DNA of 64,000 nucleotides, from NCBI RefSeq assembly GCF_002854065.1, contig NZ_CP024147.1; one strand, given 5' to 3'. Source of the DNA: Escherichia coli (GTDB lineage: Bacteria > Pseudomonadota > Gammaproteobacteria > Enterobacterales > Enterobacteriaceae). Under the pieces are notes generated by a model. It did no database searches. It was not told where the DNA came from and saw only the letters and a list, made by a program, of their open reading frames with translations. Made by a program: the position numbers and the translations under genes. Shown piece after piece: positions 1,389-56,118 of the stretch; within the stretch, counting starts at the first letter, position 1, and each line of letters begins with the position of its first letter.

Positions 1389-3215
1389 TCAGGCTCCTCG
1401 TGAAACAATAATCACCACCAGTACCGCCAGTTCAACCAGCGCCATCCGGCGGAACAGCAACGCACTCCCCTCGCACTGCCAGCCCGGCACCAGCGACACC
1501 GGATTCAGCCATTTGCGCAGTTTCAGCACCGGCGCAAACGCCTGTTTCACCGGCATGGCAAAACCGTGAGCGGTAATCACCATTGATTTTTCGTGGTCGT
1601 AACCGCACACCCAGGCCGCACCGCGGGAACGCGATGGCAAACGATCGCCTTTGCAAATCGCCATAATGATGAATGGCAGCAGCGGGCAGGCAATCAGCAG
1701 CAACGTGATCATCGGTTGAGAAACGGTGGTGTTAGCAGGCTCCAGCGGCAGAGGTACAGCAGCAGACAGCATCGGCAGCAGCCACGGCGCAGCAACACCG
1801 CCAATTACGCAGCAAATCGCCAGTGCCACTACGCTTACGCTCATCAGGAGCGGCGCACAGGTGGCGTTTTCGGCTTCTTTGGTACGCGGCGCGCCGAGGA
1901 ACGTGACGCCATAGACTTTCGCCATACACATAACCGCCAGCGCACCGGTAATTGCCAGCCCCACAGCGAGCAGCGGCCCCAGCAGACGTGCAACAAACGC
2001 GCCACTATTGCTCAGTTTGAAAAAGGATTGATAGATAACCCATTCCCCGGCAAACCCGTTCAGCGGCGGCAGCGCAGCCATTGCCATCAACCCGACTAAC
2101 ATGGCGATGGAGATAACCGGCATTTTCTTGCCAATACCACCGAGTTTTTCGATATCGCGATGACCGGTACGGAACCAGACGCTCCCCGCCCCGAGGAACA
2201 GTACGCTTTTGAACAGGCTATGGTTAAGCAGATGGTACAGACCACCGACCAGGCCAAGAGCAATCAGCGCCGGTTGTTCGAGCGCGATACCCGTTACGCC
2301 AGCGCCCAGCCCCAGCAGGATAATGCCGATATTTTCCAGGGTGTGGTAAGCCAGTAGACGCTGGATGTTATGCTCCATCAGCGCATACAGACCACCGACG
2401 AACGCGGTGATCATACCGAGCACCAGCAGCGCGATCCCCCACCACAGCGGTGCATTACCACCCAGCAGCGACAGGGTTAAAATGCCCAGCAGGCCAATTT
2501 TCATGACTACCGTAGAAAACAACGCGGCAGCTGGCGCAGAGGCGTTCGCATGTGCCTGCGGCACCCAGCCGTGCAGCGGAATAATCCCGGCCAGCAGGCC
2601 AAAGCCAATCACACCGAGCAGCCAGATATCGGAACCGAGCGGCAGCTGTTGCATACGCATATCCAGCAGGCGCAGATCCAGCGTGCCGTAACGCTGCCAC
2701 AGCAGCCAGCAAGCAATCGCCAGCAGCAGAGTGCCAAGACGCCCCAGCGCAAACCACAGTTTGCCCTCTTTGCTGTTGTTGGTGAGGAACACCGCACACA
2801 AGGCCATGACTTCAGCCATTACCACGAACATGCCGAGGTTGCTGGCGATGACGGCGCAGACGGCGGCAGCCATCAACATATTGATCTGCAAGCCGTTGCA
2901 CTTCACCTGCGCGTGGCGATGCCAGTCAATGTTGTAGAGGCTGACAAACAGACCGCACAGACCGAGCGTAATCAGCCAAATCGCGTTAAGCGGAGAGATT
3001 TGCACATCGTAGCTTACCAGCGACAGCGCACCGCTCACGCCAACCGCGCCAGTCAGTACTGTGAAGCCCGCTGCTGCCGTATACAGACTACCAACCGCGC
3101 CGCCAATTCCGGCTATCCAGCCGCTTAGCGCCTTTTGAAAAGAAAAGAGAAATGCCAGAACAGCGGCGGCGACAAACCACGCCACGCCGCTATTGATCAG
3201 GGAAATTGCGCTCAT
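1389..3215 (-). CDS. hycC: Formate hydrogenlyase membrane subunit HycC (NuoL/MnhA-like)
   Basis: 608-aa ORF, antiporter-like membrane protein, operon context. Confidence 0.9.
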   Translation of the reverse strand: MSAISLINSGVAWFVAAAVLAFLFSFQKALSGWIAGIGGAVGSLYTAAAGFTVLTGAVGVSGALSLVSYDVQISPLNAIWLITLGLCGLFVSLYNIDWHRHAQVKCNGLQINMLMAAAVCAVIASNLGMFVVMAEVMALCAVFLTNNSKEGKLWFALGRLGTLLLAIACWLLWQRYGTLDLRLLDMRMQQLPLGSDIWLLGVIGFGLLAGIIPLHGWVPQAHANASAPAAALFSTVVMKIGLLGILTLSLLGGNAPLWWGIALLVLGMITAFVGGLYALMEHNIQRLLAYHTLENIGIILLGLGAGVTGIALEQPALIALGLVGGLYHLLNHSLFKSVLFLGAGSVWFRTGHRDIEKLGGIGKKMPVISIAMLVGLMAMAALPPLNGFAGEWVIYQSFFKLSNSGAFVARLLGPLLAVGLAITGALAVMCMAKVYGVTFLGAPRTKEAENATCAPLLMSVSVVALAICCVIGGVAAPWLLPMLSAAVPLPLEPANTTVSQPMITLLLIACPLLPFIIMAICKGDRLPSRSRGAAWVCGYDHEKSMVITAHGFAMPVKQAFAPVLKLRKWLNPVSLVPGWQCEGSALLFRRMALVELAVLVVIIVSRGA

Positions 3216-3823
3216 TTAGCCTCTCCACTTTGAGCCTGCTGAAACAAGGTGAGATCGCCAAAGTCCGTGTTAAAGGTCAGCTCACGCTTACGTTTGCTGA
3301 CGCGGGCGATATCGGTGTTATCCACCAGATGCAGGGCTTTAGTCGGGCACATCCGCACGCAGGCCGGACCTTGTTCATCAAAGCTACAAAGGTCACATTT
3401 GACGGCGATCGCGCGAATACCTGGCACCCAGTCAAGCAATGTGCTGACACGCGCCGGAGCAGGCGGTGCCGGTGGCGCTTTCGGGGTATTGGCGTTTGCC
3501 GGAATATCCAGCGGACGGCTGCCGGAAAATTCGATTGCGCCAAACGGGCAGGCGATGCCGCACAGTTTGCAGCTTACGCACAGACTTTCATTCAACTGCA
3601 CGGCCCCATCAACGCGGGTGATGGCGTTAACCGGGCAGACCACCGCGCAGGGTGCATCTTCACAGTGGTGACAGAGCTGCGGCGCAGATTCTTTTTCATT
3701 GAGCATCACTCTCAGGCGCGGCATTGATTGCAGGCCGTGCTGGCGATGCGTCTCTGAACAGGCGGCCTCACAAGTGTGGCAACCGATACAGAGCGTGGAG
3801 TCAGCAATTACAAAACGATTCAC
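3212..3823 (-). CDS. hycB: Formate hydrogenlyase 4Fe-4S ferredoxin-type subunit HycB
   Basis: 203-aa ORF with multiple CxxCxxCxxxCP motifs; overlaps hycC start. Confidence 0.9.
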   Translation of the reverse strand: MNRFVIADSTLCIGCHTCEAACSETHRQHGLQSMPRLRVMLNEKESAPQLCHHCEDAPCAVVCPVNAITRVDGAVQLNESLCVSCKLCGIACPFGAIEFSGSRPLDIPANANTPKAPPAPPAPARVSTLLDWVPGIRAIAVKCDLCSFDEQGPACVRMCPTKALHLVDNTDIARVSKRKRELTFNTDFGDLTLFQQAQSGEAK

Positions 3824-3871
3824 CAGGCATTCCTCAGGTGATTGTCATTTTTGACGAAAACATGCCGATGA

Positions 3872-3900
3872 AATGTCATTTTCGACACTCATCGACACGC
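3872..3900. promoter_or_regulatory. Repeated TCGACA motifs, candidate FhlA upstream activating sequence
   Basis: gtcattttcgacactcatcgacacg seen in hycB-hycA spacer; resembles motif at 4512-4550. Confidence 0.3.
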
Positions 3901-3947
3901 CCATCCCCAAACAGGCGTAACGCCTGCAAAACGGGCAAAGCCTCAGC

Positions 3948-4409
3948 TCATGCTGCCGGGCTTTGTCCCTTTACCAGTTGGCTTAAATTCACCGGCACAT
4001 TGTTTTCAATGGCGGTGTATAAGCTGTCGTAAACGCCAGCGATTTTTTCGAGATAGTGTTCCAGAACCTGTTCGCGATCGCGGATGTTGACCTTGCCATC
4101 AATCATGCCGTCAATGCTCAGTTGCGCCTGCGCAATCCGCTGTTTGTCTTCGCCATCTTTTGTTTCGACGTAATACTCGATGGTGTGGCTGTTAAAGCCA
4201 TCCGCCAGGGTGACGTAAATACGAAAATGTTCAAAAAGGACGAAACAGAGTTCTTTGTCCGGCGCGCAGCTCATGGCGTGATGCAGGCGCGCTTTCGATA
4301 ACGTGATCCCCTGAACCAGCGAATTGCAGTAGATGTGCCACTGGTCCTGTAGGCGACGATGCCGCTGTGCGATGTAATCGGCTTTCTCGCTTATTTCCCA
4401 AATAGTCAT
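3948..4409 (-). CDS. hycA: Formate hydrogenlyase regulatory protein HycA
   Basis: 153-aa ORF, first gene of hyc operon, divergent from hypA. Confidence 0.9.
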   Translation of the reverse strand: MTIWEISEKADYIAQRHRRLQDQWHIYCNSLVQGITLSKARLHHAMSCAPDKELCFVLFEHFRIYVTLADGFNSHTIEYYVETKDGEDKQRIAQAQLSIDGMIDGKVNIRDREQVLEHYLEKIAGVYDSLYTAIENNVPVNLSQLVKGQSPAA

Positions 4410-4445
4410 TGTCAGGTTACCCGTTTAACAGAGATGCCAGCTTTA

Positions 4446-19540: not shown

Positions 19541-20836
19541 ATGTCCACAATTACATTGTTATGCATTGCGTTAACTGGCGTAATCATGCTGTTGCTGCTG
19601 GTCATCAAGGCAAAGGTACAACCATTCGTTGCTCTGCTCCTCGTCAGCCTGTTAGTCGCACTTGCGGCGGGTATACCGGCGGGCGAAGTGGGTAAAGTGA
19701 TGATCGCCGGGATGGGCGGTGTGCTTGGTTCCGTCACTATTATTATTGGTCTGGGCGCTATGCTGGGGCGTATGATCGAACACTCTGGTGGTGCAGAGTC
19801 ACTGGCTAATTATTTCAGTCGCAAGTTAGGTGACAAACGAACTATCGCTGCGCTGACTCTGGCAGCGTTCTTCCTCGGTATTCCCGTCTTCTTTGATGTC
19901 GGCTTTATTATTCTTGCGCCAATCATTTACGGTTTTGCCAAGGTTGCCAAAATATCGCCACTCAAATTTGGCCTGCCTGTCGCTGGGATCATGCTAACTG
20001 TACATGTGGCGGTACCGCCGCATCCAGGCCCTGTCGCCGCAGCAGGGTTACTCCACGCAGACATCGGCTGGCTAACCATCATCGGTATTGCGATTTCTAT
20101 TCCCGTAGGGATTGTTGGCTACTTTGCAGCGAAAATAATCAATAAGCGCCAATATGCGATGTCGGTGGAAGTACTGGAACAGATGCAACTGGCTCCGGCC
20201 AGTGAGGAAGGCGCGACAAAATTAAGCGATAAAATAAATCCACCGGGCGTCGCGCTGGTCACCTCGCTAATTGTTATTCCTATCGCGATTATCATGGCGG
20301 GTACGGTTTCCGCAACACTGATGCCGCCTTCGCATCCCCTGCTTGGTACGCTACAGCTGATCGGCTCACCAATGGTAGCTCTAATGATTGCGCTGGTGCT
20401 GGCATTCTGGTTATTGGCTTTACGTCGCGGCTGGAGCTTACAACACACCAGCGACATTATGGGCTCAGCGCTTCCTACTGCGGCGGTAGTGATTTTGGTT
20501 ACTGGTGCTGGAGGGGTATTTGGCAAAGTGCTGGTGGAATCGGGCGTCGGCAAAGCCCTTGCCAACATGTTACAAATGATTGACCTGCCTCTGTTACCAG
20601 CCGCATTTATTATTTCACTGGCGCTGCGTGCATCGCAGGGGTCAGCAACCGTAGCAATACTGACAACCGGCGGGTTACTCTCAGAAGCGGTGATGGGATT
20701 GAATCCGATTCAGTGCGTATTGGTGACGCTGGCAGCCTGCTTTGGTGGGCTTGGTGCGTCACATATTAATGACTCAGGGTTCTGGATTGTGACCAAATAT
20801 CTGGGATTGTCGGTAGCAGACGGTCTGAAAACCTAG
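19541..20836 (+). CDS. ygbN: GntP-family permease, truncated by premature amber codon
   Basis: 431-aa ORF ends at TAG 20834-20836; same frame continues 22 hydrophobic codons (TVLTTILGFTGFLITWCVWAVI) to TGA at 20903-20905. Confidence 0.8.
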   Translation: MSTITLLCIALTGVIMLLLLVIKAKVQPFVALLLVSLLVALAAGIPAGEVGKVMIAGMGGVLGSVTIIIGLGAMLGRMIEHSGGAESLANYFSRKLGDKRTIAALTLAAFFLGIPVFFDVGFIILAPIIYGFAKVAKISPLKFGLPVAGIMLTVHVAVPPHPGPVAAAGLLHADIGWLTIIGIAISIPVGIVGYFAAKIINKRQYAMSVEVLEQMQLAPASEEGATKLSDKINPPGVALVTSLIVIPIAIIMAGTVSATLMPPSHPLLGTLQLIGSPMVALMIALVLAFWLLALRRGWSLQHTSDIMGSALPTAAVVILVTGAGGVFGKVLVESGVGKALANMLQMIDLPLLPAAFIISLALRASQGSATVAILTTGGLLSEAVMGLNPIQCVLVTLAACFGGLGASHINDSGFWIVTKYLGLSVADGLKT

Positions 20837-20913
20837 ACAGTGTTAACGACCATTCTCGGTTTTACCGGATTCTTAATTACCTGGTGCGTATGGGCGGTAA
20901 TTTGACCTTAATA

Positions 20914-20946
20914 AAAAGGTCCGATGAGCATCGGACCTTTTATTTA
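20914..20946. terminator. Bidirectional intrinsic terminator between ygbN and ecdD
   Basis: Perfect hairpin aaaaggtccgatg-agc-atcggacctttt flanked by A-run and T-run. Confidence 0.45.
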
Positions 20947-21180
20947 GCGCTTATCTGCCGCCAGCAGCGGCGGAATGCTCGGCACCATTGGCGCGTCATC
21001 AATATCTTTCTGCGTCATGCGGAACTCTTCGGGATAATGTTCGCGGCTGGTACGGCGCAGCGGTTCGGTATCGCGCCAGGTATAAAGGCAATGCTGGCAC
21101 TGATATACCGTCCAGACATCTTTCACCGGCGATTTCGCCATCACTTCAATCTGTTCATCGGCACAACGTGGACAAATCAT
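20944..21180 (-). CDS. ecdD: Phenolic acid decarboxylase small subunit D
   Basis: 78-aa ORF with CPRC...CQHC zinc-ribbon motifs, downstream of UbiD-like gene. Confidence 0.8.
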   Translation of the reverse strand: MICPRCADEQIEVMAKSPVKDVWTVYQCQHCLYTWRDTEPLRRTSREHYPEEFRMTQKDIDDAPMVPSIPPLLAADKR

Positions 21181-35070: not shown

Positions 35071-35223
35071 CTACTTCTTCGATTCGTAAGCGAGAACTGC
35101 CTTAAACTCCATACCACGCTCTCTGATACTCAACTCACATAACGAGTCGCCTACCATGAGCGTGAATCCCAGTACTGTACAACACAGTACTATGATTGCC
35201 ACAAGGGCATATTTTGTTAGCAT
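35071..35223 (-). CDS. Hok-family type I toxin (hokX-like), intact 50-aa ORF
   Basis: [50 protein letters not shown]: TM helix plus conserved SLCEL...LAYES C-terminus; GGGAGG SD 6 nt upstream. Confidence 0.75.
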
Positions 35224-47394: not shown

Positions 47395-48180
47395 TTAGCG
47401 CACTAAATAACCGCCATCAACTACTAATAAATGCCCGTTGACATAATTCGATGCCGGACTTGCGAGGAATACGGCTGCGCCCATTAAATCCTGAGTATCG
47501 CCCCAACGGTTTGCCGGAATATGATCAAGAACGCGCTGATTGGTTTCTGGATTACTACGTGTCGCCAGCGTAATATCTGTTGCATAATAGCCAGGGGCGA
47601 TACCATTTACCTGAATATTATATTGACCTAGTTCATCACAATAAGCTTTGGTGAACCCGGCAAGAGCATGTTTAGTGGCAGAATATGCAGGTGACCATTG
47701 TCCACCTAAGTAAGAGAATAATGAACAGATATTAATTATTTTACCGCTTTTCTGCGGGATCATAATTTTTGCCGCTTCATAGCTTAACTCGAATGCGGCG
47801 GTCAGGTTCACATCAATCATCGGGTCCCAGTCGGCACGACCGAAGTCCAGCACCTTATTCAGCTTACAAATACCGGCATTGTTAACCAGAATATCGACGG
47901 TACCGAAACGTTCGCAACAGGCGGCGATTATCTTCTGCGGCGCGCCTTCTGCGGTGATATCCACCTGCATGAAGTCCACCTCAACACCCTGTTTTTCAAT
48001 CATTTCCTTTGTTTCGCCGTTATCTTTGACGAAGCTAGGAATAAAGACATTTGCGCCTGCTTTGGCCAACGCCATGGCAAATGCCTGGCCTAAACCGCTA
48101 TTCCCGCCGGTAACAATTGCGGTTTTACCTTTCAGGGAGAAAAAATCCATTGAGAACGCATTGAGAGATTCGATTGACAT
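47395..48180 (-). CDS. ygcW: Short-chain dehydrogenase/reductase
   Basis: Start at MSIESLNAF inside longer ORF; TGGNSGLG cofactor motif; 261 aa. Confidence 0.8.
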   Translation of the reverse strand: MSIESLNAFSMDFFSLKGKTAIVTGGNSGLGQAFAMALAKAGANVFIPSFVKDNGETKEMIEKQGVEVDFMQVDITAEGAPQKIIAACCERFGTVDILVNNAGICKLNKVLDFGRADWDPMIDVNLTAAFELSYEAAKIMIPQKSGKIINICSLFSYLGGQWSPAYSATKHALAGFTKAYCDELGQYNIQVNGIAPGYYATDITLATRSNPETNQRVLDHIPANRWGDTQDLMGAAVFLASPASNYVNGHLLVVDGGYLVR

Positions 48181-48499
48181 AGTTAGCTCCAATTTCCGTA
48201 AGGCAAAAAAAAAAGAAAGGTAACTTCCCCCGCGAGAGGGAAGTTACCTTTCTCATTATCTCTGGTAACTGGAGATAATTTTTAGCATAAGGGCATAACT
48301 GCTAATGTGATCGTAATCACAGTGTGATATTCGCATTATCAAATAGTTTTAAAAAGCAGAAGCGTGATTACTCTCACACAACACCTCTGCTTTCCATGTT
48401 ATTTCTTATTGCAATTACTAGAGACCTGAGAAAAGTAATCCACCTGAAAGGGCGGCTTACTTTTCTCTTTTTTTTGTCTATTACAAATGGGAATACGAT

Positions 48500-51329: not shown

Positions 51330-51500
51330 GGTTATCCCCGCTGACGCGGGGAACTCTCTAAACATAACCTATTATTAATTAATGATTTTTTAAGCCAGTC
51401 ACAATCTACCAACTTTACAGTATCACACAAACAACACATCCATCATGTTAAAGAGCACTTAACCCATTGATTAAAAAGGTAAATATTTAAAATAACTCTA
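51330..51500 (-). CDS. placeholder
   Basis: placeholder. Confidence 0.
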
Positions 51501-51694: not shown

Positions 51695-52366
51695 TCAGGC
51701 AATATTTAAATATTTATGGGTTTGCATCGACAAACGCCAATTACGCGCAATGCAGGTTTCAATGCACAAACGTGTGGCATCATCCTTTTGGCTAATCGGC
51801 TGCAGTGCAATGACTCGCGGTTTATCATCGGTCAGCGTCGCCAAAAGTTCATCCAGTGCTTCAATATCACGTACGCGTCCCACTGGATGCTTGATTTCGT
51901 TGGCTCGCTCCAGTGCCTGTGACAACACTTCATAGCCGCCGCGCATGTTCAGCTTTGGCGATACGGTAACCCAGGTATTCGGTGTACAGCGTACTTCATG
52001 AGTACCACTGGTTTCGATCTGGCAGCTAAAACCGTTCTTTTCGAGCAGGTCAGTCAGTGGTAGCAAATCATGAATGCAAGGCTCACCACCCGTAATCACC
52101 ACATGCCGCGCGGTGTATCCCTGGCGACCAATGACAGCCAGCAAGTCTTCACTGCTCGCCGCCCCCCACTTATCACTCTCTTTGGTCTTCGCCAGAATGC
52201 TGAAAAGGGAGACTTCCCGATCCTCAAGCTTTTCCCAGGTGTGTTTGGTGTCGCACCAGGCACAGCCAACCGGGCATCCCTGTAAACGAATAAAAATGGC
52301 GGGGACGCCGGTAAAGTAACCCTCACCTTGCAGGGTCTGGAACATCTCGTTAATCGGGTACTGCAT
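51695..52366 (-). CDS. queE: 7-carboxy-7-deazaguanine synthase (radical SAM)
   Basis: 223-aa ORF with CxxxCxxC-type radical-SAM cysteine cluster. Confidence 0.9.
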   Translation of the reverse strand: MQYPINEMFQTLQGEGYFTGVPAIFIRLQGCPVGCAWCDTKHTWEKLEDREVSLFSILAKTKESDKWGAASSEDLLAVIGRQGYTARHVVITGGEPCIHDLLPLTDLLEKNGFSCQIETSGTHEVRCTPNTWVTVSPKLNMRGGYEVLSQALERANEIKHPVGRVRDIEALDELLATLTDDKPRVIALQPISQKDDATRLCIETCIARNWRLSMQTHKYLNIA

Positions 52367-52520
52367 AGCATTCTCTGTGAAGTGGATAATTGTTAATTAT
52401 TGCAGATCCTGCCGCAACAATCATGTCTTATTAACATTCTGTTACAGGCAGGTTTAAGGCAAAAAGTGCATTAGATCATAAAGAATAAAATGAAGCGGCG
52501 TATTATGTTTTAAGGAATTA

Positions 52521-52692
52521 ATGAAAAAGGATTTAAACATGCTCAGGATATTCATCGTAATTATATTTATTTTCAATTTATCAGGCTGTGGATATAACGA
52601 TATTCAAACCTATGATGAGCAGGTTAACGCCTCCTGGTCTGAGGTATTAAATCAATATCAACGTCGCGCCGATCTTATTCCTAATCTTGTCG
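52521..52692 (+). pseudogene. LemA-family lipoprotein gene, 5' fragment truncated by IS1
   Basis: AAGGA RBS; MKKDLNMLRIFIVIIFIFNLSGCGYN... with LSGC lipobox; reading frame runs into IS1 left end after 57 codons. Confidence 0.6.
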
Positions 52693-52747
52693 GGTGATGC
52701 TGCCAACTTACTGATTTAGTGTATGATGGTGTTTTTGAGGTGCTCCA

Positions 52748-53023
52748 GTGGCTTCTGTTTCTATCAGCTGTCCCTCCTGTTCAGCTACTGACGGGGTGGT
52801 GCGTAACGGCAAAAGCACTGCCGGACATCAGCGCTATCTCTGCTCTCACTGCCGTAAAACATGGCAACTGCAGTTCACTTACACCGCTTCTCAACCCGGT
52901 ACGCACCAGAAAATCATTGATATGGCCATGAATGGCGTTGGATGCCGGGCAACCGCCCGCATTATGGGCGTTGGCCTCAACACGATTTTCCGCCATTTAA
53001 AAAACTCAGGCCGCAGTCGGTAA
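52748..53023 (+). CDS. insA: IS1 InsA
   Basis: 91 aa [21 protein letters not shown]..., GTG start. Confidence 0.9.
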
Positions 53024-53445
53024 CCTCGCGCATACAGCCGGGCAGTGACGTCATCGTCTGCGCGGAAATGGACGAACAGTGGGGATACGTCGGGGCTAAA
53101 TCGCGCCAGCGCTGGCTGTTTTACGCGTATGACAGGCTCCGGAAGACGGTTGTTGCGCACGTATTCGGTGAACGCACTATGGCGACGCTGGGGCGTCTTA
53201 TGAGCCTGCTGTCACCCTTTGACGTGGTGATATGGATGACGGATGGCTGGCCGCTGTATGAATCCCGCCTGAAGGGAAAGCTGCACGTAATCAGCAAGCG
53301 ATATACGCAGCGAATTGAGCGGCATAACCTGAATCTGAGGCAGCACCTGGCACGGCTGGGACGGAAGTCGCTGTCGTTCTCAAAATCGGTGGAGCTGCAT
53401 GACAAAGTCATCGGGCATTATCTGAACATAAAACACTATCAATAA
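52942..53445 (+). CDS. insB: IS1 InsB (transposase C-terminal part, expressed as InsAB' by -1 frameshift)
   Basis: 167-aa ORF in -1 frame relative to insA, recognised IS1 InsB. Confidence 0.85.
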
Positions 53446-53462
53446 GTTGGAGTCATTACCTG

Positions 53463-53846
53463 ATGCTGGCCCCAAAAAATAAAAACGCTAAAGTGAAAAA
53501 ACAAAAGAAGACTCCGCAGGTTCGTGAATCAGGACGAAATTCATTGTTTGTCGTGATGCTGATAATTATTGTGGGATGGTGCCTGGTGTTCGCCAGTATT
53601 AAAGATATTGCATTCATCTCAACAATTATTGGGTTAATTGATCATTTTATCGGTCCAATAACCATTGCTGGCATCGTTCTGCTGATCATTGTGGCCAAAT
53701 TTACTGGCAATCTTAAGCTGGGATCAGGAGAAAAAAGCAACAGGAAAACGGGGAATCGTAATGCTCACTCTCGCTCTTCGTCGAGAAATTCTTTCCGCGG
53801 TGGTGGCGGTTCTTCAGGAGGCGGCGGTTCATCCGGCCGTTGGTGA
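53463..53846 (+). pseudogene. 3' fragment of a TPM-domain/YgcG-like membrane protein gene, lacking its 5' end
   Basis: Begins immediately after IS1 right end; two TM helices and GGGGSSGGGGSSGRW tail paralogous to ygcG C-terminus. Confidence 0.5.
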
Positions 53847-53851
53847 TCGTA

Positions 53852-54745
53852 ATGCGCTTAATCTTTATTCTATTCACTTTGTGGTGTCTTCCTGGGCTTG
53901 CCCAGCAAATTGCTGTGCCAGAACTGCGCCAACAGGTGACCGATATTACTGGTACGTTAAGCACTTCTGAACAACAATCACTGACACAGCAACTGCAGGA
54001 TATTACACATAAAACACGGGCGCAGGTCGCTGTATTAGTAGTGCCGTCTACCGGAGACGATTCCATTGAACAATATGCTACAAGGGTTTTTGATAGCTGG
54101 AAACTGGGAGATAAGCAGAGAAACGATGGTATTTTACTTCTGGTTGCCTGGGAGGATCATGCTGTTCGTATTGAGGTTGGCTACGGGCTGGAAGGGGTGG
54201 TTACCAACCTGCAAGCGGCGAAGATTATCAGGGATATATTGATCCCTGCCTTCAAAAGTGATGACCTGATGGGTGGATTAACACTGGCAAGCGAAAATAT
54301 CGGCGCACTTCTGTTGAATGGTGAATTACCGGAAGACAGGGGGGATTATTACAGTATCAATCCCCCTATTCCATTATCGCTTGCTGTAATTATATTGCTG
54401 GCGGTACTTTCATATTTTATTGTTTTTACCGATCCGTCGAATTTACCCTGGATCACTCTCACTGGCGCCATTTACGGGATGGTATTCCTCTATGTTGCCG
54501 AGCCAGGACCATGGACCAATTTAATCGTTGCCTGCGGTATGTTAACGCCTTTTGCGATCGTACCACTGGTTATTTTTTGGCTTATCGTCAATAAAAAGCT
54601 ACGCGCCAAATACAAAAAACTCAGTAAAGAAAGAGCTACAAGAAAAGGTTCTTCTTCATCCTCTTCCGGTGGAGGCTCAAGTGGCGGCGGATTTAGCGGC
54701 GGGGGCGGTTCTTCTGGAGGTGGCGGCGCATCCGGCCGCTGGTAA
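53852..54745 (+). CDS. ygcG: TPM-domain protein YgcG with signal peptide and Gly/Ser-rich C-terminal tail
   Basis: Start at MRLIFILFTLWCLPGLAQQ; TPM domain, TM helices, ends GGGSSGGGFSGGGGSSGGGGASGRW. Confidence 0.75.
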   Translation: MRLIFILFTLWCLPGLAQQIAVPELRQQVTDITGTLSTSEQQSLTQQLQDITHKTRAQVAVLVVPSTGDDSIEQYATRVFDSWKLGDKQRNDGILLLVAWEDHAVRIEVGYGLEGVVTNLQAAKIIRDILIPAFKSDDLMGGLTLASENIGALLLNGELPEDRGDYYSINPPIPLSLAVIILLAVLSYFIVFTDPSNLPWITLTGAIYGMVFLYVAEPGPWTNLIVACGMLTPFAIVPLVIFWLIVNKKLRAKYKKLSKERATRKGSSSSSSGGGSSGGGFSGGGGSSGGGGASGRW

Positions 54746-54754
54746 CTCAACCAT

Positions 54755-54785
54755 AAAAAATGCCAGCCCGGAGGCTGGCATTTTT
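54755..54785. terminator. Bidirectional intrinsic terminator between ygcG and eno
   Basis: aaaaaatgccagcc-cgga-ggctggcattttt. Confidence 0.45.
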
Positions 54786-54804
54786 AAATCAGATAAAGTC
54801 AGTC

Positions 54805-56118
<1,314 letters not shown>

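Follow-up and report, generated by a model that had tools for sequence, protein, structure and literature searches.

A deletion beside an IS1 element in the lemA-TPM cluster of Escherichia coli, most likely enlarged stepwise from one end of the element

In the window, by which we mean the whole 64,000-nucleotide stretch of Escherichia coli DNA analysed here, a complete IS1 without a target-site duplication marks a deletion that removed most of a lemA-TPM gene cluster between queE and eno. It is near certain that the deletion was mediated by IS1 in the broad sense. Transposase-mediated intramolecular (replicative, cointegrate-type) transposition, i.e., an adjacent deletion, is the best explanation and in our view the probable one. 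Adjacent deletions by IS1 are textbook knowledge; the event is of an already known kind and involves no new type of element.

The locus was compared with 5,426 complete RefSeq E. coli genomes, plus draft and metagenome contigs. The closest of the complete genomes were CUWW06 (NZ_CP182139; Thailand, wastewater) and 100416 (NZ_CM128593; Gambia, human stool), both 100.0% identical to the window over 25 kb leftward of the locus. Isolate GPT24-02 (L006) and CFT073 (L007) served as intact reference alleles. The features of the locus in the window are as follows.

51695-52366, minus strand: queE, the conserved left anchor, a 223-aa ORF annotated as queE in the 100%-identical CUWW06
52521-52692, plus strand: lemA 5' remnant of 57 codons, with signal peptide and LSGC lipobox
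52684-52692: 9-bp sequence first targeted by IS1, ATCTTGTCG, of which the left copy alone survives (from the duplication in strain PK-F-10132 and the empty site in drafts L025 and L026)
52693-53460, plus strand: complete IS1 of the IS1B type, 768 bp
52693-52715: IRL, the left IS1 terminus
52748-53023, plus strand: insA, an ORF inside IS1
52942-53445, plus strand: ORF of the insB' frame; the insAB' CDS ends at 53445
52996-53005: A6C frameshift motif TTTAAAAAAC in IS1
53438-53460: IRR, the right IS1 terminus
53460/53461: deletion junction, where the last base of IS1 meets DNA situated 1,928 bp (CUWW06) or 2,133 bp (intact allele) further right
53461-53469: new 9 bp abutting IRR, TGATGCTGG, the presumed target of intramolecular strand transfer
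53463-53846, plus strand: TPM2 3' remnant of 127 aa, residues 256-382 of the 382-aa TPM2
53840-54745, plus strand: third TPM gene (TPM3, ygcG-like), intact, 300-301 aa, its start overlapping the TPM2 stop
54805-56103, minus strand: eno, the conserved right anchor

The IS1 element and its missing target-site duplication

The 768-bp element has the length of the IS1 family and its imperfect inverted repeats of about 23 bp (GGTGATGCTGCC... and GGTAATGACTCC...). The left end reads GGTGATGCTGCCAACTTACTGAT and the right end, reverse-complemented, GGTAATGACTCCAACTTATTGAT; the two agree at 18 of their 23 positions. A -1 frameshift at the A6C motif joins insA and insB' into the InsAB' DDE transposase, and the Pfam domains Zn_ribbon_InsA, HTH_Tnp_IS1, and DDE_Tnp_IS1 were detected on products identical to those of the window IS1. 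Furthermore, the element is identical at 768/768 positions to two CUWW06 copies annotated as 'IS1-like element IS1B' (transposase WP_095033700.1), and the RefSeq annotation of the CUWW06 IS1B copy carries a 'programmed frameshift' note. The ends, the reading frames, and the identity to annotated IS1B thus bear out the preliminary description, which had placed a complete 768-bp IS1 at these positions.

No 8-9 bp target-site duplication surrounds the window IS1, while one is present at the same site in PK-F-10132. The 9-mers immediately outside the element differ, with ATCTTGTCG at 52684-52692 and TGATGCTGG at 53461-53469, and no direct repeat of 7-14 bp was found at the canonical IS1 boundaries in the window. 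The unlike flanks had been remarked on before, and re-inspection disclosed no concealed duplication. In PK-F-10132 a copy of ATCTTGTCG stands at each end of the IS1, which confirms the boundaries of the element and its original target. The missing duplication marks a rearrangement after insertion and does not speak against IS1 identity.

The intact gene cluster and the remnants in the window

In both intact alleles the queE-eno interval holds four genes, lemA, TPM1, TPM2, and TPM3. The intact LemA of L006 has 206 aa (Pfam LemA, E=1.2e-48, residues 38-199), TPM1 is a 307-aa ORF, the intact TPM2 has 382 aa (Pfam TPM domain, E=3e-21, residues 23-149), and the ygcG-like TPM3 has 300 aa in the intact allele. 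A look at the queE-eno region of other E. coli, which had been suggested as a check, therefore recovered the uninterrupted lemA and TPM genes, and it corrected the proposed lemA-TPM-TPM module to lemA plus three TPM genes. The left flank of IS1 had been read as the first 57 codons of a LemA-family gene and the right flank as the C-terminal ~127 codons of a TPM protein. Both readings hold, the former by alignment with the intact 206-aa homologue and the latter as TPM2 residues 256-382. The flanking genes are not naturally this short, as relatives have full-length versions.

The reading frame of the lemA remnant continues into IS1 and ends with Gly-stop at 52697. About 20 residues of the LemA domain (PF04011) are left in this remnant, too little to count as that domain. 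The TPM2 remnant consists of membrane segments and a Gly/Ser tail; the TPM domain (PF04536) is wholly gone, and no part of it was found on the 127-aa remnant. An NCBIfam search with both remnants returned a weak MamQ (LemA-like) match for the 58-aa piece and no match for the 127-aa piece. Judged from their sequences, the lemA and TPM2 remnants are probably non-functional pseudogene fragments. A promoter scan for a hybrid outward promoter at the right end of IS1, which could serve the 127-aa remnant, gave no site at the junction, and the overall count of sites was at shuffle level. TPM3, on whose product Pfam TPM_phosphatase was found, is intact yet lies downstream of IS1, which may be polar on it.

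It should be noted that in all genomes inspected, CFT073 among them (L007 2758-3429), the PGAP annotation of TPM1 spans 672 bp and is labelled 'incomplete, missing C-terminus'. An uninterrupted 307-aa TPM1 ORF with the family's usual Gly/Ser-GRW tail is found at L001 (the CUWW06 locus) 3494-4417 and at L006 2728-3651, and the label is probably a quirk of the annotation model and not a true truncation.

Extent and breakpoints of the deletion

Window positions 51695-53460 correspond to L001 1501-3266, and positions 53461-54805 correspond to L001 5195-6539. The window is thus CUWW06 minus 1,928 bp, with the gap opening at the first base past IS1 and the breakpoint lying exactly at the terminal IS1 nucleotide (window 53460 = L001 3266). 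Compared with the intact L006, the window is without positions 2296-4428, that is 2,133 bp, which comprise lemA codons 58-206, the entire TPM1, and TPM2 codons 1-255. On both sides of IS1 the window is colinear with CUWW06 and with the intact L006, as an adjacent deletion requires. The loss had previously been put at ~0.9 kb or more; comparison with the intact allele replaces this figure, since 0.9 kb results only when O157 strains like FORC_044, which have separately lost the middle TPM gene, are taken as the reference.

No microhomology was found between the two deletion ends. The first eight bases beyond IS1, TGATGCTG (window 53461-53468), are identical to IRL positions 3-10 (52695-52702). 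Among 3,264 candidate 9-bp targets on the right side of IS1, only 9 have 8 nt or more in common with one of its two ends. The observation was made post hoc, and the match may be due to a target preference or to chance. Galas, Calos and Miller reportedly noted in 1980 that IS1 ends and insertion sites show homology. Microhomology-mediated slippage was considered and rejected: the deletion ends share no repeat, and the TGATGCTG match is to the far (left) end of IS1, so recombination there would remove the element.

Relatives with an empty site and with a smaller deletion

CUWW06 and 100416 carry the same IS1B in the same orientation and share the left junction with the window. The right IS1 flank in these genomes is GGCTCAAGA, which means that they too are without a target duplication. 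They keep TPM1, the 3' end of lemA, and TPM2, the last interrupted by a stop codon, and what is missing to the right of IS1 in this allele is 204 bp together with the duplicated target copy. The NCTC strain GCA_900449015.1 (L031) is also in this intermediate 204-bp state. The left junction, present in 3 of the 5,426 complete genomes, does not differ by a single base between the window, CUWW06, 100416, L031, and many draft contigs. A parental IS at the same position, expected for an IS-adjacent deletion, is thus provided by CUWW06, 100416, and L031, where it borders a smaller deletion.

The state before the insertion is represented by the drafts GCA_014399945.1 (L025) and GCA_002631365.1 (L026), which are 99.8-100% identical to CUWW06 on both sides and have no IS1. 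Their empty site has 204 bp where CUWW06 has IS1. The lemA gene of L025 (1898-2221) carries a 1-bp deletion and is frameshifted to a 107-aa ORF, and the lemA frameshift is also found in L026. In addition, L025 is 100% identical to CUWW06 across the position of the TPM2 stop codon (L001 5038-5040), so this nonsense codon is older than the IS1 insertion. The lemA frameshift and the TPM2 stop in an IS1-free allele indicate that the cluster already consisted of pseudogenes before IS1 arrived.

The alleles form a series from a decayed IS-free locus, through IS1 with 204 bp and the right target copy lost, to IS1 with 2,132-2,133 bp lost. An IS1 with its target duplication, as a simple insertion would leave it, was found only in an unrelated lineage and not in that of the window. 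Since the intermediate deletion of 204 bp starts from the end of IS1 at which the window's deletion also starts, growth of the scar in two or more steps is most likely.

Proposed mechanism

IS1 transposes mainly replicatively, both intra- and intermolecularly, by means of the InsAB' DDE transposase (PMC12903888). We propose that an IS1B inserted into lemA at ATCTTGTCG, in a lineage where the lemA frameshift and the TPM2 stop codon would already have been in place. The 3'-OH of the resident element's IRR would then have attacked nearby DNA in the same chromosome, and everything from IRR up to this new target would have been excised and lost, classically as a non-replicating circle with a copy of IS1. 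The chromosome would be left with one intact IS1, its left flank as before and its right flank new. This would most likely have happened twice: a first event may have removed the 204 bp and the right target copy, giving the state of CUWW06, 100416, and GCA_900449015, and a second event may have taken out another 1,928 bp up to TGATGCTGG, giving the state of the window. The intact IS, the one invariant flank, the nested deletions from the other end, and the breakpoints at the terminal nucleotide without microhomology are what intramolecular replicative transposition predicts. From the alleles compared, serial deletions appear more plausible than parallel ones, and the transposase, not RecA, is the likely maker of the deletions.

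IS1 is active in the window's lineage. In CUWW06 a further IS1B of identical sequence interrupts ygcW (L009, another CUWW06 segment, 20337-21104), a gene that is intact in the window (47395-48192), and this private insertion indicates that the sister genomes each hold IS1 events of their own. At least 39-40 matching places, mostly IS1, were counted per genome. The same abundance lends some credit to a two-step course, in which a second IS1 in direct orientation entered TPM2 at TGATGCTGG and RecA-dependent recombination between the two 768-bp copies then removed one IS1 and the DNA between them. The lineage has ~40 IS1 places and gains new copies (e.g., ygcW::IS1 in CUWW06), and IS1 is found repeatedly at this locus in other strains. 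The product would equal the observed sequence, so that sequence alone cannot tell this course from a one-step deletion, and because all IS1B copies examined in the lineage are identical, a chimeric element could not betray it either.

What the two-step course does predict is an IRL junction at the TPM2 site, ...TTTCCTATGATGCTGG joined to GGTGATGCTGCC (pattern CCTATGATGCTGGGGTGATGCTGCC). No IS1 occurs at the TPM2 site among the 5,426 complete genomes, and the predicted truncated TPM2::IRL product is absent from a 153-billion-gene index by exact look-up; within these limited look-ups (5,426 genomes and the exact-protein index), no genome or contig with a second IS1 at the distal endpoint was found. 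Moreover, the nested losses of 204 bp and 1,928 bp would need two extra insertions and two recombinations, whereas intramolecular transposition needs no extra insertions. We therefore regard two-step recombination as unlikely and favour transposase-mediated adjacent deletion. The preliminary description had named both, as IS1-mediated adjacent deletion or inter-IS1 recombination, and its general attribution stands on the conserved left junction, the intact IS1, and the loss that begins at the terminal right base of IS1.

Authenticity and polarity of the junction

The right junction of the window, IRR followed by TGATGCTGG, was found in 0 of the 5,426 complete RefSeq E. coli genomes. The 127-aa remnant is present on 12 contigs, and contigs from five samples (L013-L017) start inside the right end of IS1 and have base-for-base the same right junction. 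The samples that bear it are listed below.

NCBI GCA_035821435.1
ENA ERZ27255804
ENA ERZ28667097
Logan ERR15740533
Logan DRR831865

In GCA_035821435.1, another contig ends at the left junction. Recurrence in at least five independent short-read assemblies indicates that the right junction is real. The samples listed with the deletion junction and those listed with the exact CUWW06-type TPM1 protein do not overlap, from which it follows that the deletion allele circulates in nature.

Since IS1 is a high-copy repeat, one could suppose that the assembly collapsed two IS1 copies flanking a 1.9-kb segment into one. The short-read contigs with the junction all break inside IS1, which taken alone would be compatible with a second copy. 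However, the window is continuous through IS1, the junction was seen again in independent assemblies, none of the samples with it is listed with the CUWW06-type TPM1 protein, and the IRL junction that a second copy would create at the TPM2 site is not on record. An artefact of this kind is very improbable.

IS1 adjacent deletions may start from either end of the element, but the reverse polarity, in which IS1 first entered TPM2 at TGATGCTGG and a leftward deletion ran from IRL to lemA codon 57, is effectively refuted by the common left junction, which would have to match the CUWW06-type junction and the target of an independent insertion to the base by chance, and by the fact that the right junction and not the left varies among relatives.

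Other lesions and variation at the locus

The IS1A of PK-F-10132 (L003 5999-6766) occupies the identical 9-bp target in lemA, has the orientation of the window's IS1, and is bordered by a perfect duplication of ATCTTGTCG. It has 9 differences, and its left flank carries the 16 SNPs of the IS1-free sister alleles L004, L005, and L008. The IS1A variant and the sister-allele SNPs show that this insertion is independent and belongs to an unrelated lineage, so the target ATCTTGTCG has been struck at least twice.

Further IS1 copies in or near the locus were seen in other strains (L005 6472-7239; L008 3647-4414; L004 5001-5768; L010 301-1068; L011 2010-2777). They lie between lemA and TPM1 with the duplication GAAAAATTT, late in lemA in reverse orientation, within a CRISPR array with the duplication TGTATCGGT, between ygcU and queE where ygcW-ygcE is missing, and at the ygcG 3' end.

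A subset of O157:H7 genomes is without the middle TPM gene (~1,163 bp; FORC_044, L002 3805-3832). This loss runs via a 28-bp repeat (L001 4368-4395 and 5531-5558) that encodes the GGGGSSGGGG-SGRW C-termini common to TPM1 and TPM2. The O157 loss of TPM2 is paralogue recombination, a deletion mechanism distinct from that proposed for the window.

At least 80% of the segment from the lemA 3' end through TPM1 and TPM2 is held by only 1,103 of the 5,426 genomes, and ~340 genomes have a diverged lemA-TPM1 version (80-90% identity). In most of the 5,426 the segment is absent, and a K-12-type yqcG-ygcG allele is found instead. The K-12-type and four-gene alleles cease to be homologous ~35-50 bp past the lemA start (L010 1069-2057 versus L006 1188-2176), and the identity of K-12 ygcG to TPM3 is only ~70%. 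The early end of homology and the low ygcG identity suggest that the queE-eno interval holds deeply diverged alternative cassettes. We also considered whether K-12 yqcG is a lemA remnant of an older deletion; this was rejected, as the yqcG protein is unrelated.

Independent lesions of the cluster thus include the lemA frameshift, the TPM2 nonsense codon, three separate lemA IS1 insertions (two at the identical 9-bp target), IS1 between lemA and TPM1, IS1 in ygcG, the O157 paralogue recombination, and the nested IS1-adjacent deletions. One could read this list as recurrent, possibly selected inactivation of the lemA-TPM cluster with IS1 as its main tool, and the endpoint at TGATGCTG as end-mimicry that guided target capture by InsAB'; we find this reading doubtful. 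Most simply, the deletion is neutral decay.

Two other differences were seen elsewhere in the window. A solitary degenerate type I-E CRISPR repeat, GGTTATCCCCGCTGACGCGGGGAAC, with 2 mismatches, lies at 51330-51354 between ygcE and queE. At that position L003-L006 and L008 have a CRISPR array of 0.3-1.4 kb, and the solitary repeat looks like the remnant of a lost array. The iap-cysH interval has a Hok/Gef-family toxin gene at window ~35071-35223 (from colinearity with L009 7372-7524), where many E. coli have a type I-E cas operon and the CRISPR-1 array instead.

Comparison with known IS-adjacent deletions

The classical IS1 deletions in the gal/chl region were reportedly described by Reif and Saedler in 1975, and IS1-mediated adjacent (replicative) deletions are said to have been characterised by Turlan and Chandler in 1995. 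As in the window, the IS remains intact in such deletions, one flank is unchanged, the loss starts at the terminal IS base, and there is no target duplication; as at this locus, their lengths vary and are nested from the same end. Nothing mechanistic differs from the classical cases, except that the DNA lost here is a 2.1-kb part of a pseudogenised lemA-TPM cluster and not a selectable marker or a region of tens of kilobases.

In clinical E. coli, deletions directly adjoining IS1 have been documented, those at nfsB being a comparable IS1-adjacent case (PMC10569738). In the LTEE, adjacent deletions at IS150 were often small initially and larger over time, and 14 of the 14 IS150-associated deletions examined were without target duplications (PMC11708052). 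The likeness goes further, in that an earlier time point there already showed an IS at the position concerned, and the growth of those deletions matches the series seen here, from empty site to 204-bp loss to 2.1-kb loss. In contrast, IS150 belongs to the IS3 family and was followed in time-resolved laboratory populations, whereas here the element is IS1 and the order of events is deduced from natural isolates.

The nearest counterparts are the RefSeq lemA::IS1 alleles of CUWW06, 100416, and PK-F-10132, whose insertion site and orientation are those of the window. The CUWW06 and 100416 alleles have an IS1B and flanks identical to the window and have lost only 204 bp, while the allele of PK-F-10132 (NZ_CM148383) is an independent simple insertion of IS1A with target duplication.

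Implications

The locus offers a clean, naturally occurring illustration of a textbook process, in which the series of alleles is unusually complete and is joined by an independent insertion at the same target. The junction of IRR with TGATGCTGG can serve as a lineage marker, given its occurrence in none of the complete genomes and in several draft or metagenome assemblies. When pseudogenes are annotated, an IS that lacks a target duplication should be treated as the scar of a rearrangement. Finally, the lemA-TPM cluster is dispensable and often degraded in E. coli, which bears on the assignment of its function.
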